64,000 nucleotides of DNA, taken from the sequence record OR539219.1; one strand, written 5' to 3'. Made by a program: the position numbers and the translations under genes. The notes beneath the pieces were generated by a model. It saw only the letters and a program-made list of their open reading frames with translations. It did not search any database and was not told the origin of the DNA. Within the stretch, counting starts at the first letter, position 1. Each line of letters begins with the position of its first letter. Below are positions 3,392-34,745 of this stretch, piece by piece. Source of the stretch: Escherichia phage vB-Eco-KMB39.

Positions 3392-3674
3392 TCATATCCT
3401 CAATCTGCGATCTAGTAGTCTTCCAAAGAATACTAATGAGTTCATCATTATATGGCTGTTTTAGAATATCCCGACTTTTCTTGATAGCATATTCGTATTG
3501 AGCAAAATTATTGTTTTCAGCTGCAATTTGAGCGTGTTTATAAAGACGGTTCAGTTCGCATTTGTTTTTAGACAATAACTTATTTGCTTTTCTTTCTGCT
3601 TCAAGACGGTTCTTTTCTTCAATAGAAGAAATAAGCTTTTCCACTTCATCATTAATTTCGGGTTTATCAGTCAT
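3357..3674 (-). CDS. Hypothetical protein
   Basis: 105-aa ORF, compact arrangement with neighbours. Confidence 0.45.
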   Translation of the reverse strand: MTDKPEINDEVEKLISSIEEKNRLEAERKANKLLSKNKCELNRLYKHAQIAAENNNFAQYEYAIKKSRDILKQPYNDELISILWKTTRSQIEDMIDAYTRKIQAS

Positions 3675-3675
3675 A

Positions 3676-3894
3676 TTATTTCTCTAATATAAAATAAAAA
3701 TCATCATCTGTTAAATGATACCGATAGTTTAATTCTACACCATTAGATTTAAAAGCGGTATCATACGGATTTTCTGGATCAATATCAATGTCAAGAGCTA
3801 AAACTTCCCTGAGATACATTTTAAGTAAATAGGGAATAGCTTCAACTTCAGGTATTTCTTCCAAGAATCCGGAGAGGTTAATCGTTAGCCTCAT
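3676..3894 (-). CDS. Small hypothetical protein
   Basis: 72-aa ORF immediately downstream of gp55. Confidence 0.4.
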
Positions 3895-4435
3895 ATAAAA
3901 AATCCAAACTAGGAGAATCGTCTACAACACTTTTCTTTTCAGCCCCCGGTGTTCTATAGGTTGATTCTTCGTAATGCGTCATTTTATCGTAGATGTCTTG
4001 AATAAAAGTTTCATCTACTAACGCAACCATATCGTCGTCACGACTGTCATAGACATTGTGAACGAAGTAACTATATTTCTTTGCAACTTCCTTACGTTCT
4101 TTTTTAATACGTTGGACGAATGCATTAAAACAAGCTTGAGTTATATATGCATGTGGGTTTTTATATTTCGTTTCATCAAAATTATGAAGTCCCTTAATAG
4201 AAGCTTCTATACCATCTGCAATCATTTCTTGTTTCCAAGACTGGGTGTATCCTGAAAAGTTGAAACGTTTAGATAAGCCTTCTGCAATAAGCATAATGGC
4301 TAATCCGATAGTATCATTCTGACGAACTACTTTATTTGGGTCTTTATTATTTGCTAATTCTGTTTTCCAATCAATAATAGCTTGTAAAAGCTCTTTATTG
4401 TTTACGTAATTATATTTAGGCTTAGTTTCTGACAT
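3878..4435 (-). CDS. 55: Late-transcription sigma factor gp55
   Basis: From ATG at 4433-4435 gives 185 aa starting [27 protein letters not shown] as in T4 gp55; SD GAGGTG upstream. Confidence 0.93.
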
Positions 4436-29167: not shown

Positions 29168-29641
29168 TTATTTGAACGATTTAACGTACTGAATAGAACC
29201 TTTACTATTTACAAAGGCAATTTTACCATTTTTATTATACATGGTAGCAGTACGCTGATAGCCATAAGTTTGCTTACCAGATTGATAACCAACTAATGCA
29301 AAATTATCTTCACCCATTTTATTCTGTTTAGCGCGAATGCGTTCATGACCATGTGCCATAAGAACCTTAGCATCACCAGTTACAATGGATCGACGAGTTT
29401 TTTCATCTTCAACTGTATTAACAAAGTCGTCAAATGAATCAAATTTAGCATGAGATTTATTATACAGTTTTCCATCTACTGCATAATTATATCCCTGTAC
29501 ATCCATCTCAACTTCTGTACCATCATCCAATACAGCAGTAATTTTCTGTCCTTTTTTAAATTTCAAAAGATCAGTAAAAGATTCAGCAATAATTTGAGAA
29601 TTAATAGCTGCTTCAGTGATAAATTCTTGATATGTTTTCAT
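29168..29641 (-). CDS. Internal head protein (capsid-targeting-sequence family)
   Basis: N-terminus MKTYQEFITEA matches the T4 internal-protein targeting sequence with an ITE/A prohead-protease site; adjacent to e as ipIII is in T4. Confidence 0.6.
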   Translation of the reverse strand: MKTYQEFITEAAINSQIIAESFTDLLKFKKGQKITAVLDDGTEVEMDVQGYNYAVDGKLYNKSHAKFDSFDDFVNTVEDEKTRRSIVTGDAKVLMAHGHERIRAKQNKMGEDNFALVGYQSGKQTYGYQRTATMYNKNGKIAFVNSKGSIQYVKSFK

Positions 29642-29729: not shown

Positions 29730-30260
<531 letters not shown>

Positions 30261-30716
30261 TTAAAAGAGGCTGTTCATTATTCGGTAAAGTGAAGGACCC
30301 ATCACATATTGCCACTGAGTACGAGGAATAAGAGCAAAAGCATCCATCTCTGGAATCATAACGCCATCTTTATTTTCAAAATAAGACTCGCAATGGCAAT
30401 TTCTGAACATCTCATGCTCTACTGGAATCGTATAATAAAATAACTGTAAGTCTTTATTACTAGAATATTTAAATACACCTAGGTCTTCTAGAAGGTCTGG
30501 ATTATAATTGCTAAAACCGGTCTCTTCTAAGCATTCTCTTTTTGCAGCTTCCAGTGCATTCAAATCAGAACTTTCTACACGGCCCTTTGGAATATCCCAA
30601 CGATGTGCCATCATTCCAGGCTTACGAGAACCAGTAACCCGACCCATAAATAAATCTTTATCTTCTGTCATAAAGATAATACCAGCTGATAGTGTTTTCA
30701 TTTTAATTTCCTGCAT
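30261..30716 (-). CDS. nudE: Nudix hydrolase
   Basis: 151 aa; Nudix box GRVESSDLNALEAAKRECLEETGF. Confidence 0.85.
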   Translation of the reverse strand: MQEIKMKTLSAGIIFMTEDKDLFMGRVTGSRKPGMMAHRWDIPKGRVESSDLNALEAAKRECLEETGFSNYNPDLLEDLGVFKYSSNKDLQLFYYTIPVEHEMFRNCHCESYFENKDGVMIPEMDAFALIPRTQWQYVMGPSLYRIMNSLF

Positions 30717-31186
30717 TCAGTGATAAAGTTATTTAAATTTTGAGTATATTTCTTTTCATCAAAAATCTTTTGTTGTCTGCGTAGCCGCCATGGCATTTCA
30801 ATGAACGTGTACCATATCCCAGATAATATTGCTGCTGTAAAAATATTAACAAGTATGGTTAAAAGAATCCAATCTCCTATTCTGTCCATTGGATTTTTTA
30901 TAAAAAAGTAAAATACGAATGATGTCACAGGAAGACTAATAATATACCACAGAATCATAATCTTATCTGTGAACCAATCAGCGTTCGTTAACTTAGCGCG
31001 ACCATTATAAATACACACGAATTTATCATCTGTTGCAGTAGATGGCTTAACTGGTTGATATCCCATTCTAAACTCCCTAATTAACAAATTTTTCATATCT
31101 TCGGAACAGCCATTCCAGTCAACTCTATCAACTGGAATGCCATCATCCCCATCATCTAAATCATACCAGCGAGTTTTTAAAATCAT
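30698..31186 (-). CDS. Membrane protein (paralog family, C-terminal FITECRKLK)
   Basis: Hydrophobic helices; C-terminal motif shared with next two ORFs. Confidence 0.5.
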   Translation of the reverse strand: MILKTRWYDLDDGDDGIPVDRVDWNGCSEDMKNLLIREFRMGYQPVKPSTATDDKFVCIYNGRAKLTNADWFTDKIMILWYIISLPVTSFVFYFFIKNPMDRIGDWILLTILVNIFTAAILSGIWYTFIEMPWRLRRQQKIFDEKKYTQNLNNFITECRKLK

Positions 31187-31545
31187 TTAATTTTCCTGCA
31201 ATCGCTCACAAACTCTTTCATTGATTCATTTTCAATATAAGACATATAGTTATTATATTCTTTTAATTGTATTTTGTAATCCTTTTTTCTTTGCCAATTT
31301 ATTTTAAAATTATCATAATGAAAATATAGCATGGTGCCAAAGAATGAAAATAATGAAATCGCTATAGTAAAACGAAGTTCACTCCAAACCTCTGTTATAA
31401 TTGCTGAACCATCGATGTTTAAAATAATACAGTCAATCATTAATCCAATAAGACTACCAGCAAGAGCTGCAAATACTGACACGGCAAGAATTAATAGTGC
31501 CTCGGGAAACGAATATTTGACTTTATTTAGTTTTGGCTTTTGCAT
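31183..31545 (-). CDS. Membrane protein (paralog family, C-terminal FVSDCRKIK)
   Basis: Two hydrophobic helices; shared C-terminal motif. Confidence 0.5.
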   Translation of the reverse strand: MQKPKLNKVKYSFPEALLILAVSVFAALAGSLIGLMIDCIILNIDGSAIITEVWSELRFTIAISLFSFFGTMLYFHYDNFKINWQRKKDYKIQLKEYNNYMSYIENESMKEFVSDCRKIK

Positions 31546-31940
31546 CGTGATTCCTTAACAAATTTCATAATTTCATCAAATTCATGCATATCAAGTTTAA
31601 GCTGGTGTTCATTTTTAATCTTTTTACACTGAGCTTTCCATTCGCGTACACGTTTACGATAATGTCTTCCTTGATACCAGTATCCTACCCAATTTACAGG
31701 TACTAATAAAAATGGAACTACTAATGGAAGAATTAATACTGACAGAAATATTACACCAGATTCAATATCAGTCATAACGTCTATAACCATTCCAATAATC
31801 AATAGAATTACAAATGATATAGCTGTCACAGGACCTATTAATACATCGGTAGAAATTATCTGGTGCTTTGGTTCATACTTCAAAGGTTTACTTGGAAGGT
31901 ATAGTGATGGCTTTGACATATTCTCTACATTCCTTAACAA
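31527..31940 (-). CDS. Membrane protein (paralog family)
   Basis: Hydrophobic helices; C-terminal FVKESRCK related motif. Confidence 0.45.
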   Translation of the reverse strand: MLRNVENMSKPSLYLPSKPLKYEPKHQIISTDVLIGPVTAISFVILLIIGMVIDVMTDIESGVIFLSVLILPLVVPFLLVPVNWVGYWYQGRHYRKRVREWKAQCKKIKNEHQLKLDMHEFDEIMKFVKESRCKSQN

Positions 31941-32502
31941 ATTTTTCTAGTAATAAATCGCTTTCAAAATTGGGATTTTCCACGAATTTATCAAAAAGAT
32001 CATCAATAATAGTCAAGATATTCCTTTTATTAAGAATACGCTTATTTTCATATTCTGTTTCAGAGTCAACTATAAGAGTAAAGAAATATTTCTTTCCCTG
32101 AAATTTTACCGTAGTATCAATATAGAACAAATTTGACTTTTGTAAATTACGTTTAAACCATGCGTCACTTAAACTATAAACGCCAAGATAATCATAATCG
32201 TCATTTAAATAACAAACTGTCCATTCAGGAGAAATGAAATCAGTAAATTCAACATCAAAATCACACGTCAATGAATGAATTGATTCAATACTGTTAATGA
32301 GTATTCCAGGACGTATTAAAGACTTTTTACCTCTAGAAAATCTTCCAGAAAGACTTTCATCAGTTTCATATGAAGACCCCCAATAGTAATTACGTCCTTC
32401 TGCCATACGTTTAAGAGCATTTAATAATTGGTCTGGAACATCAACTCGTCTTTGGAACTCTTCAAACATTGAATTGAAATCACTTTGCATTTTCATTTTC
32501 AT
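31888..32502 (-). CDS. Hypothetical protein
   Basis: 204-aa ORF. Confidence 0.5.
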   Translation of the reverse strand: MKMKMQSDFNSMFEEFQRRVDVPDQLLNALKRMAEGRNYYWGSSYETDESLSGRFSRGKKSLIRPGILINSIESIHSLTCDFDVEFTDFISPEWTVCYLNDDYDYLGVYSLSDAWFKRNLQKSNLFYIDTTVKFQGKKYFFTLIVDSETEYENKRILNKRNILTIIDDLFDKFVENPNFESDLLLEKFVKECREYVKAITIPSK

Positions 32503-32543
32503 TCCTATTTACTCCAAATATAAGGGGCCGAAGCCCCTTATCA

Positions 32544-33137
32544 TTATTTCAGAGAATTAATGTATTCCTGAACATCGGCAGAGGTAGTTTCAACCCCGGA
32601 AATATTACCGTTAAAGGTTTCAACTCGAGCAAGAGTATCTTCAATATCAACCTTAGTTAGCGCTGCGATTTCAACTACATCATCAGCAGTACTAATTCCA
32701 AGGGCATTTGCCGCACGAGTTTCACGGATATATTCCAATTTAACTGCAAGTTCTTGGCGAGCATCATCTAACTCAACTACTTTCTTGGCGATTTCAATTC
32801 GCATTTCAGCATAACCGTCAGCCTTAGTAGTCAGCTGCTCAGCTGTTCGACGATATAGCAAACCGAGTTTAGCGTGCATTGTTACATCTTGACCTTCGGA
32901 AAGAAGTTTACGAATTTCACGCTCTTTTGATTCGGCTTGTCGATTCTTTTCGATAACAAGTTCACGAATACGTTTTTCTTCATTAATAGATTTAACAGAA
33001 GCAGTTTTTAGATCTTTAATTTTATCAAGTAGTTTTGCTGCTGCAGCAGTATACTGTTCTTCAACAGATAAATTTTTAGCCATAGCAGAACCAAGTTTAG
33101 TGCGAATAAACTCAACAATTTTCTTCAGTGTGTTCAT
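32544..33137 (-). CDS. Coiled-coil hypothetical protein
   Basis: 197 aa, largely heptad-like charged repeats. Confidence 0.5.
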
Positions 33138-33180
33138 AGTATTTCCTTAGGTTGATTAAAAATTAAAATCTGTGAAAGAA

Positions 33181-33711
33181 TTATATCATGCTATTTAAGA
33201 GATGTAAACTATTTTTAATTTTACAAATTCGTTCAGCTTCTTCAACAGCGGCGGCGATAATGCTTTTAGCTATAGGAGTACTAATACTAGTAGCTTTTAC
33301 ACTTAACACGATTTCTTTATCTTTACCAGGCCAACCCCACGATTTTTCACTGTGAGTGCCTTTAATTACAGCAGACACCTCAAGTGAGCATCCATTATCA
33401 TATGTTTTTACATTGACAACCCAAGGTTCACTTTTCTCAATCGGTTTCTCAATCGGTTTATCCCAGTAAATATTAAGAATACGTGGGACATCAAATTTGG
33501 CAGGACAAATCTTAACCGTAAGACCTTCGCTTTCTAGCCAATTAATAAGAGGGCGTTCATACAGGCGACGATGTGGGCTTGGGATTCGACAAGCCTTATG
33601 TCCGTTGCTTGCGGCTTCACTAAGCTGTTCTAATACCTGCTTTTGCATTATTGATAAGATACCATCAAAAGATTTTTCGGAAGTTTCATTCAGTTCGGTA
33701 TAAAGAGACAT
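33181..33711 (-). CDS. Hypothetical protein
   Basis: 176-aa ORF. Confidence 0.5.
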   Translation of the reverse strand: MSLYTELNETSEKSFDGILSIMQKQVLEQLSEAASNGHKACRIPSPHRRLYERPLINWLESEGLTVKICPAKFDVPRILNIYWDKPIEKPIEKSEPWVVNVKTYDNGCSLEVSAVIKGTHSEKSWGWPGKDKEIVLSVKATSISTPIAKSIIAAAVEEAERICKIKNSLHLLNSMI

Positions 33712-34271: not shown

Positions 34272-34745
34272 TTATTTGATTTGTTTAGCAGACCAAATGC
34301 GGTCTTTGATGATTTTTTGGATGTCTTCAACATACTCAAGAGAGTGAGCATGTGGGTTATCTTTGAAACTATAAGCACGAGCTAGCTTTTGGCCTTCGGT
34401 TTTGATTACTAAAAGCTCTTTAAGGATAGCTTCATATTTGGAGATAATTCCTTTAACAATATTTTTCTCTTGTGCGACTTTAGGATCTGCTTTAGGAGCA
34501 GGTTTACCCGAAGCCTTTGCAAAAGCAGCGCCAGTAGCAACTAAACTTTTCCAGGCCATACTAACCGCATTTCCTGTAAATCCTTCTGCTTTCATGTCGC
34601 GAGCAAATTGGAATCGCGATTCGTCAGAAGCATCTTTATAAGAATATTTACCCGCTGCAATGGCTGCTTTTGCGACAGCTTGAATTTCGGTGCTAGATGC
34701 TTCATTTAACACCGCTTCATTTAAAAATTGAGTATATGATTTCAT
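34272..34745 (-). CDS. Internal-protein-like protein with capsid-targeting-type N-terminus
   Basis: From ATG 34743-34745 (SD AGGAAAT): MKSYTQFLNEA... resembles the CTS; Ala/Lys-rich; 157 aa. Confidence 0.55.
   Translation of the reverse strand: MKSYTQFLNEAVLNEASSTEIQAVAKAAIAAGKYSYKDASDESRFQFARDMKAEGFTGNAVSMAWKSLVATGAAFAKASGKPAPKADPKVAQEKNIVKGIISKYEAILKELLVIKTEGQKLARAYSFKDNPHAHSLEYVEDIQKIIKDRIWSAKQIK

Follow-up and report, generated by a model that had tools for sequence, protein, structure and literature searches.

Superinfection exclusion in bacteriophage T4 is carried out by Imm and Sp, which are small, early, non-essential inner-membrane/periplasmic proteins. Small membrane proteins also serve as anchors of the PspA family, LiaI with LiaH in Bacillus and PspB and PspC with PspA in Escherichia coli. 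T4 gp55, gp33 and gp43 carry SLDFL-type C-terminal tails that bind the sliding clamp, and Arbiol, Comeau and Krisch reportedly described in 2010 modular gene shuffling, T4-type hyperplastic regions and promoter-early stem-loop cassettes. Here a 64,000-nucleotide stretch of Escherichia phage vB-Eco-KMB39 (sequence record OR539219.1; the window) was analyzed, in which the small genes e.2, e.3 and e.4 encode predicted membrane proteins with two hydrophobic helices (hairpin proteins) that share a C-terminal tail motif with the product of the neighboring gene e.5.

Each of these systems resembles the locus in part. Like Imm and Sp, the products of e.2, e.3 and e.4 are small, apparently early and non-essential membrane proteins of a T-even phage, but they are without sequence or profile similarity to Imm and Sp, which are encoded elsewhere in the genome. 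As in the LiaI-LiaH and PspB-PspC-PspA systems, small membrane proteins are encoded beside a coiled-coil protein of ∼200 residues, here e.6, which is weakly colinear with Vipp1/PspA; in this locus, however, soluble e.5 with the same tail sits between e.6 and the hairpin genes. With the T4 clamp-binding tails, beside which the C-terminal end of the window open reading frame (ORF) at 3878-4435 is presumably also to be placed, the locus has in common a short C-terminal peptide found on otherwise unrelated proteins of one phage, although the peptide is a different one and only here is the partner putative. As in the modular shuffling of T4-type genomes, small accessory gene content varies between conserved anchor genes, but the genes are not each flanked in the manner of promoter-early stem-loop cassettes: they overlap and appear coupled, and what is repeated is a coding tail.

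In themselves the genes are unremarkable: they are catalogued T4 ORFs, known from over 500 sequenced phages, and can be dispensed with on a laboratory host. The organizing observation for this part of the T4 ‘dark matter’ is that e.2, e.3, e.4 and e.5, which databases file as four unrelated families, are linked by a Straboviridae-wide C-terminal peptide that is under selection as protein. The tail is common to all four, and e.3 and e.4 are placed here in one family of hairpin proteins with a copy number of 0-3. A concrete hypothesis follows of one common tail partner, with e.6 pointed to as a possible phage PspA-like protein.

Gene identities and coordinates

The region 30200-32600 of the window matched 513 phage records at 90-98% identity by megablast, nearly all of them Tequatrovirus. 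The window is assigned with high confidence to a T4-like Tequatrovirus and the three ORFs to orthologues of T4 e.2, e.3 and e.4; this grading covers the identity, architecture and evolutionary statements jointly. In T4 the three genes (NC_000866, T4p125-127) lie in the same order and on the same strand between nudE and e.5, with 83-98% protein identity. Gene order on the minus strand of the window is e.6 - e.5 - e.4 - e.3 - e.2 - nudE, and the genes of the array are as follows (TM, predicted transmembrane segment).

32544..33137, minus strand: e.6 orthologue, 197 residues, coiled-coil protein and anchor gene of the cluster (PHROG 1203).
31888..32502, minus strand: e.5 orthologue, 204 residues, without a hydrophobic segment, C-terminus LLLEKFVKECREYVKAITIPSK (PHROG 2607, E 6.5e-109).
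31527..31919, minus strand: e.4 orthologue, 130 residues (PHROG 2604, E 8.6e-70); N-terminus MSKPSLYLPSKP, TM 26-47, TM 55-78, long basic helix with internal EWKAQCKK, terminal KFVKESRCKSQN.
31183..31545, minus strand: e.3 orthologue, 120 residues (PHROG 2330, E 1.2e-57; T4 annotation e.3); N-terminus MQKPKL, TM 16-42, acidic loop, TM 57-76, basic tail ending EFVSDCRKIK.
30698..31186, minus strand: e.2 orthologue, 162 residues (PHROG 2203, E 1.3e-78, residues 1-160 of 162); N-terminal domain of 75 residues, TM 76-97, loop, TM 106-129, basic tail ending NFITECRKLK.

The first-pass annotation had placed three tandem small membrane-protein paralogs at 30698-31186, 31183-31545 and 31527-31940, and the first two ORFs, of 162 and 120 residues on the minus strand, are exactly as it described them. 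The third exists as a TTG-started ORF, but its real start is the ATG at 31919 and not the TTG at 31940, because PHROG 2604 aligns to residues 8-137 of the TTG-started ORF, T4 e.4 is 393 nucleotides (nt) long and the orthologues all begin MSKPSLY. The overlaps are as claimed, 4 nt (ATGA) between e.3 and e.2 and 19 nt between e.4 and e.3; a further overlap of 32 nt joins e.5 and e.4.

Precomputed Pfam assignments place PF26896 on e.2 homologues with 85-98% identity and PF26873 on all e.4 homologues. The e.3 homologues (n = 46) were at least 66% identical and came from T4-like phages only, and a HMMER search of 1.84 billion representative proteins with an e.4 profile recovered 7 clusters (at 50% identity), none of them from outside the T4-like phages. 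The genes e.2, e.3 and e.4 are already known and are annotated in T4 as ‘conserved hypothetical, predicted membrane protein’ (PMC11879866, supplementary file 8). Many genomes deposited in GenBank call e.3 or e.4 a ‘DNA primase’ or ‘sulfurtransferase’, and e.6 is called a ‘host specificity protein’ there. These names were unsupported by any profile search and were disregarded.

The C-terminal motif in the window

The tails NFITECRKLK (e.2), EFVSDCRKIK (e.3) and FVKESRCKSQN (e.4) were all present as had been reported, and in the hairpin proteins the motif has the form [L/M]-x-x-F-[I/V]-x-[E/D]-[C/S]-R. A fourth carrier, soluble e.5, had been overlooked. Motif positions are given below together with the adjoining initiation signals.

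31924..31941, minus strand: e.5 tail motif FVKECR, directly upstream of the e.4 start.
31620..31643, minus strand: internal second motif of e.4, EWKAQCKK, with W94 and C98 invariant in the cross-genus alignment.
31545..31562, minus strand: e.4 tail motif FVKESR; AAGGAA in the K-E codons precedes the e.3 start by 5 nt.
31195..31212, minus strand: e.3 tail motif FVSDCR; AGGA of the next R-K codons is the e.2 Shine-Dalgarno sequence, with an ATGA stop/start overlap at 31183-31186.
30710..30727, minus strand: e.2 tail motif FITECR; AGGA in the next R-K codons precedes the ATG at 30701 by 7 nt.

The expression F[VI]x[ED][CS]R had five matches in the 127,996 residues of the six-frame translation of the 64-kilobase window, and four of the five lie 3-11 residues before the stops of the consecutive genes e.5, e.4, e.3 and e.2. 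A complete Tequatrovirus genome (276 ORFs) has four matches to F[IVL]xxC[RK], three of them being these tails. Between e.3 and e.2 the tail was the best ungapped 10-mer, its score being equalled by 1 of 2000 shuffles. In all six pairings of e.5, e.4, e.3 and e.2 the highest-scoring ungapped 7-mer lay either in the terminal motif or in the CKKIK inside e.4. When e.4 was compared with e.3 and e.2, the best 7-mer and the best 10-mer were both in EWKAQCKK. The reservation attached to the first-pass annotation, that the C-terminal resemblance might be attributable to chance, did not hold, the resemblance lying far beyond chance by shuffles, by regular-expression counts and by the Fisher test given below.

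In e.4-type proteins generally an internal EW[K/E]xxC is found ∼25-30 residues before the terminal motif, with W and C invariant across genera.

The motif across Straboviridae

The comparison was anchored on e.6, which is present in 1099 phage records across Straboviridae, and the regions downstream of e.6 were compared. Twelve genera other than Tequatrovirus were covered (Mosigvirus, Gaprivervirus, Dhakavirus, Kanagawavirus, Mosugukvirus, Jiaodavirus, Winklervirus, Moonvirus, Tegunavirus, Biquartavirus, Roskildevirus and Pseudotevenvirus). In 12 of 12, the gene behind e.6 encodes a soluble protein of 95-315 residues at the e.5 position. These proteins form one very diverged family, the best-conserved part of which is [L/I/M]xxF[I/V]xxC[R/K] near the C-terminus, and F[IV]xxC[RK] is carried by the e.5-position proteins of all 12 genera. 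Directly behind e.5, e.4 occupies the same position in Mosigvirus, Gaprivervirus and Jiaodavirus as in the window. Across the genera 0-3 small two-helix proteins lie behind e.5, ending in [F/W][I/V/L]xx[C/V/I/M/A/L/S][R/K] followed by 0-6 residues, and are distributed as follows.

No hairpin protein: Biquartavirus, Pseudotevenvirus.
One hairpin protein: Dhakavirus, Kanagawavirus, Winklervirus; Tegunavirus, as a remnant only.
Two hairpin proteins: Mosigvirus, Gaprivervirus, Moonvirus.
Three hairpin proteins: Mosugukvirus, Jiaodavirus, Roskildevirus; the Tequatrovirus window, with e.4, e.3 and e.2.

The loose form of the motif was present in the last 14 residues of 22/22 array proteins and of 8/273 control ORFs (Fisher's exact p = 7e-27), and seven of the eight motif-positive controls proved to belong to the e.6-to-e region of other genera as well. 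Because every array protein carries it and the positive controls come almost entirely from the same cluster, the motif is, on these counts, a signature of the whole gene cluster. A position-weight matrix built from e.5 tails alone was over-fitted and separated hairpin tails poorly; regular-expression counts, Fisher tests and hhalign were used instead.

Codon usage at the motif was compared over 37 proteins, taken from 13 genera. Synonymous codons alternate at the conserved positions (F as TTT/TTC, C as TGT/TGC, R as AGA/AGG/CGT/CGC/CGA/CGG), and this pattern shows selection on the peptide; translation initiation adds a second constraint that overlaps with it and is of lesser weight.

Membrane architecture

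As the first-pass annotation had stated, hydrophobic helices are present in all three proteins, two stretches in each, and the description of small membrane proteins with a conserved C-terminal tail is supported by hydropathy and motif counts. By hydropathy and charge analysis the short acidic loops of e.2, e.3 and e.4 contain 0-1 K/R and the C-terminal tails 9-14 K/R. Because the loop is poor and the C-tail rich in these residues (positive-inside rule), both termini are probably cytoplasmic.

The AlphaFold2 model of e.4 (predicted local distance difference test score, pLDDT, 77) has a helix at 24-49, a four-residue loop and a single unbroken helix at 54-128, so that in the model TM2 runs on into a cytoplasmic helix of ∼50 residues. 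In each hairpin protein TM2 is prolonged by a basic C-terminal helix of 33-52 residues with the motif at its end. For e.2 the AlphaFold2 model was unreliable (pLDDT 51.5) and too poor for a fold search of the N-terminal domain. A Foldseek search of the e.4 model against viral structures returned e.4 orthologues only.

Relationships among e.2, e.3 and e.4

The claim of three tandem paralogs is supported in part: e.3 and e.4 are homologous, and e.2 shares with them only the tail and the architecture. Within Tequatrovirus, BLASTP and hhalign detected nothing past the tail among e.2, e.3 and e.4; a comparison limited to this genus would have led to rejecting paralogy, and cross-genus profiles were needed. 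With these, e.3 and e.4 matched over TM2 and the tail (hhalign 93%, E 3.5e-7). The Viterbi alignment spanned 106 columns and scored 44.2; the highest of 150 column-permuted controls reached 16.9, and the reversed profile 21.5. One of 150 permuted controls for another profile pair scored 137.9, which was treated as a degenerate-alignment artefact and not relied on. Intermediates were found by BLASTP: two Gaprivervirus proteins match each other (E 2.7e-4), and one protein of Mosugukvirus PM2 matches both e.3 (1.2e-4) and e.4 (6.3e-4). An N-terminal M-x-K-P-x-L / (Y)LPSKP motif is also common to e.3 and e.4. By these profile and motif comparisons e.3 and e.4 are tandem paralogues.

For e.2, the match to e.3 covers the 18-residue tail only (87%, E 3.6e-6, hhalign) and the match to e.4, a weak one, TM2 only (36%, hhalign). 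Full-length e.2 orthologues occur in fDHCT2, in TH22 (Gaprivervirus) and in X20 (Winklervirus). In fDHCT2 and TH22, as in the window, e.2 adjoins nudE, and there it lies about ten genes from e.3; the adjacency of e.2 and e.3 in Tequatrovirus is secondary for this reason. In Mosigvirus, Gaprivervirus and Winklervirus other genes lie behind the e.5-e.3 array where Tequatrovirus has e.2. Judged from these comparisons, e.2 is an older, separate lineage of the motif-bearing set and not a recent tandem duplicate.

Plasticity and dispensability

The e.2 gene of the window is intact at 162 residues, whereas the T4 reference copy (102 residues; NC_000866, about 67490-67960) is the same gene disrupted by two indels, a -1 deletion and a +1 insertion, that are separated by 97 nt, with the NFITECRKLK tail still encoded in the original frame. 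The 102-residue form is also found in Yersinia phage fPS-2. In phage vB_EcoM-UFV11 the order is e.6 - e.5 - e.4::e.2 - nudE, with e.3 deleted and residues 1-31 of e.4 joined in frame to e.2 from TM1 onward (1501-1821 of the fetched region L019). The junction is a 10-nt microhomology, TCCTGTGACA, in TM1 of both genes. This fusion was counted as a sign that the hairpin proteins may be interchangeable.

On the laboratory host, CRISPRi-ART knock-down of T4 e.2, e.3, e.4, e.5 and e.6 was scored ‘Not Fit’, that is, without consequence for fitness (PMC11879866, supplementary file 15). From these scores and the frameshifted T4 e.2, the genes e.2-e.6 are dispensable on a laboratory host.

A proposed docking role and the e.6 protein

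The explanation favored here, to which as a whole we give about an even chance, takes the motif as the terminus of a docking helix in the cytoplasm, by which e.5 and the hairpin proteins would all attach to a single partner on the inner side of the membrane. A shared partner is proposed because soluble e.5 and the hairpins would expose the same C-terminal helix end on the cytoplasmic side of the inner membrane. The hairpin proteins would then be interchangeable membrane anchors or modulators, their number and sequence varying with phage lineage. That the motif serves as a shared docking element is put forward tentatively. The most plausible partner would be the adjacent coiled-coil e.6, held at the membrane much as LiaI holds the PspA homologue LiaH. 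It is the best candidate because it is always adjacent and far better conserved; its role as common partner of the tails remains a doubtful proposition.

Profiles link the tails of e.5 and the hairpin proteins in part, the e.5 tail profile matching the tails of e.2 (81%, E 1.1e-5) and e.3 (62%, E 7.4e-5). For e.6, a 14-genus profile gave weak colinear matches to four Vipp1/sll0617 chains (E 0.12-0.8, residues 4-140 against 4-142). The GAP161 e.6, best of 14 orthologues, matched Pfam PspA_IM30 (PF04012) with E 4.2e-4 over residues 2-144 against profile positions 3-146. An e.6 orthologue also lies at 3498-4094 of the fetched region L013. On these matches e.6 may be a phage PspA/ESCRT-III-like protein, which is a lead and not a finding.

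A wider proposal would unite the tail, e.6 as a membrane remodeller or protector like PspA/Vipp1 (bacterial ESCRT-III), e.5 as its universal soluble partner and the hairpin proteins as lineage-variable anchors in one Straboviridae module; we consider it improbable. If it were true, the hairpins would recruit or tune the complex during infection, for example so that the membrane is kept energised against depolarising abortive-infection systems.

Several results weigh against the docking explanation. The match of the e.5 tail profile to the e.4 tail was not significant, and the e.4 tail has lost the motif cysteine. The PspA_IM30 match of GAP161 e.6 (20.4 bits) is below the gathering score of 33.9; the window e.6 has no PspA match in Pfam at E ≤1, and hhalign of e.6 against a Vipp1 fragment gave 7.7%. 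Both e.6 and e.5 persist in genera without hairpin proteins, which are therefore not required by them. Transmembrane prediction used hydropathy and one AlphaFold2 model, that of e.4, the e.2 model being unusable. The tail helix is moderately amphipathic, with a hydrophobic moment of 0.41-0.49 that is reached by 5-22% of shuffles.

An amphipathic membrane-targeting helix was considered separately as a role for the tail and is weakened, since the hydrophobic moment is not clearly over that of shuffles.

Alternative explanations

The first-pass annotation had suggested that tandem membrane proteins of this kind often act in superinfection exclusion, lysis timing or resistance to host membrane defences. 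In that case e.2, e.3 and e.4 would act independently and the tail would be a family signature. As small inner-membrane proteins from the early region of a T-even phage, which evolve fast, differ in copy number and are not essential on a laboratory host, they have the usual profile of accessory host-interaction genes, and adjacency to the lysozyme gene e could suggest lysis. Searches of Pfam (E ≤1) and NCBIfam (E ≤0.1), however, returned no match for e.2-e.5; PHROGs returned for them only their own families of unknown function, and PADLOC-DB no family for e.2-e.6 at E ≤0.1. No similarity of e.2-e.4 to Imm or Sp was found by Pfam, NCBIfam or PHROGs, no match to the lysis-timing families of holin T, antiholin RI or RIII, and none to LiaI, PspB or PspC by Pfam or NCBIfam. 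A late promoter (TATAAATA) was absent from the coding strand of 30698-32502, that is, from e.2-e.5, and the sole nearby consensus on that strand, at 30251-30258, serves gene e; this speaks against lysis. The tail, moreover, is not a membrane-protein feature, because soluble e.5 and other soluble proteins of the cluster carry the motif. In the literature no study on e.2-e.6 function was found, and the main text of the HIDEN-SEQ preprint does not mention these genes. We know of no exclusion phenotype for e.2-e.4. Independent action in exclusion, lysis timing or anti-defence is on balance unlikely.

A second possibility is that the motif-encoding 3' ends are recombination handles for in-frame gain, loss or swap of cassettes and are conserved through gene conversion. 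This would account for a copy number of 0-3 in related genera. It agrees with a near identity of motif codons in Mosigvirus e.5 and e.3 (17/18 nt) and with an exact direct repeat between adjacent tails in the window, as listed below.

31929..31944: 16-nt exact direct repeat, copy 2, in the e.5 tail (100% identity, spacing 379 nt).
31550..31565: 16-nt exact direct repeat, copy 1, AAATTTGTTAAGGAAT on the coding strand, encoding KFVKE in the e.4 tail.

The natural deletion in UFV11 also fits, though it went via microhomology in TM1 and not via the tail. Across genera, however, only the amino acids of the motif are conserved and not the nucleotides; the peptide is kept throughout Straboviridae, including single-copy e.5 without an array, which needs protein selection, and recombination could follow from the repeats instead of being their reason. 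We regard recombination handles as a rather remote explanation.

The resemblance could also be a by-product at the level of DNA or RNA, produced by overlap with initiation regions and by junctions copied in recombination, with a peptide devoid of function. A Shine-Dalgarno sequence does lie in or just behind the motif, AAGGAA (K-E codons) for e.4 and e.3 and AGGAAA (R-K codons) for e.2 and the second nudE ATG, 5-10 nt upstream of each downstream ATG. In the hairpin proteins the arginine codons are mostly AGA/AGG and positions +2 and +3 mostly K-E, and to the exact repeat is added one of 21-30 nt with 76-77% identity, common to the e.3/e.2 and e.2/nudE junctions. Against this stand the many synonymous codons used for the conserved F, I/V, C and R, and the position of F-I/V and C outside any Shine-Dalgarno sequence. 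Pseudotevenvirus e.5 retains the motif 25 residues before the stop, ∼75 nt ahead of the following start codon, and Biquartavirus e.5 retains it with 37 nt between its stop and the start of the gene behind; at these distances the motif cannot supply that gene's ribosome-binding site. The remaining ATGA-coupled genes of the window have tails unrelated to the motif. A ribosome-binding site as sole cause of the resemblance is unlikely, and the by-product explanation as a whole very improbable.

Chance likeness of short basic C-termini in AT-rich phage genes, with which pairwise BLASTP E values of only 0.005-0.14 and within-genus hhalign values of at most 11% would agree, was rejected as a negligible prospect, being refuted by the motif counts in the window and in the 37 proteins, by the Fisher test against controls and by cross-genus profile scores far over the permutation nulls.

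Expression context and neighboring features

The features flanking the array are as follows.

29730-30224: T4 lysozyme gene e, neighbor of nudE.
30261..30716, minus strand: nudE, Nudix hydrolase (Pfam NUDIX, E 3.8e-13; T4 annotation).
33180..33208, minus strand: promoter-like site of sigma-70/T4-early type, TTTACA-17-TATAAT with TG (11/12 consensus match only).

This site, a strong one by its consensus and situated upstream of e.6, is the likely source of an e.6-e.5-e.4-e.3-e.2-nudE transcript. Because the genes from e.5 to nudE overlap one another, they are predicted to form one early or middle, translationally coupled unit. A GC-rich UUCG hairpin (GGGGC-UUCG-GCCCC) lies on the coding strand at 32520-32541, between e.6 and e.5; it is recorded as a terminator in some phage records and is without a clear T-run on the coding strand. 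The start of nudE is ambiguous (30701-30716). The annotated ATG at 30716 (MQEIKM...) is without a Shine-Dalgarno sequence, and a second ATG at 30701 (MKTLSAG...) has AGGA 7 nt before it and overlaps the e.2 stop as ATGA.

Elsewhere in the window the ORFs at 29168-29641 and 34272-34745 start MKTYQEFITE and MKSYTQFLNE, in which we see a likeness to the capsid-targeting sequence of the internal proteins of T4. The former also has a core, (Q)EFITE, similar to (N)NFITE of the e.2 tail, probably by coincidence.

Further proteins of the e.6-to-e region that end in the motif in other genera include ...DFISECRGR, ...MFIAKCRAK, ...DFIKGCRK, ...SFIQMCRGN..., ...LFIMQCRMR... and ...EFIKEVRQ. In the fetched regions they lie at L010 4464-4718 (phiR1-RT, unannotated), L007 6382-6690, L008 6890-7429, L005 6338-6616, L009 6431-6718 and L012 6752-7036. 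Apart from L008 6890-7429, which is the X20 orthologue of e.2, they appear to have nothing else in common.

Behind the array, other genera have another tandem family that the window lacks, made up of soluble proteins of 65-103 residues ending W[V/I]SSSxxC (e.g., ...GAWVSSSALC, ...GGWVSSSMEC). Its members are found at L002 3231-4025, L003 3191-4451, L004 5022-5603, L005 5210-5793, L009 5566-6104 and L010 5059-5800.

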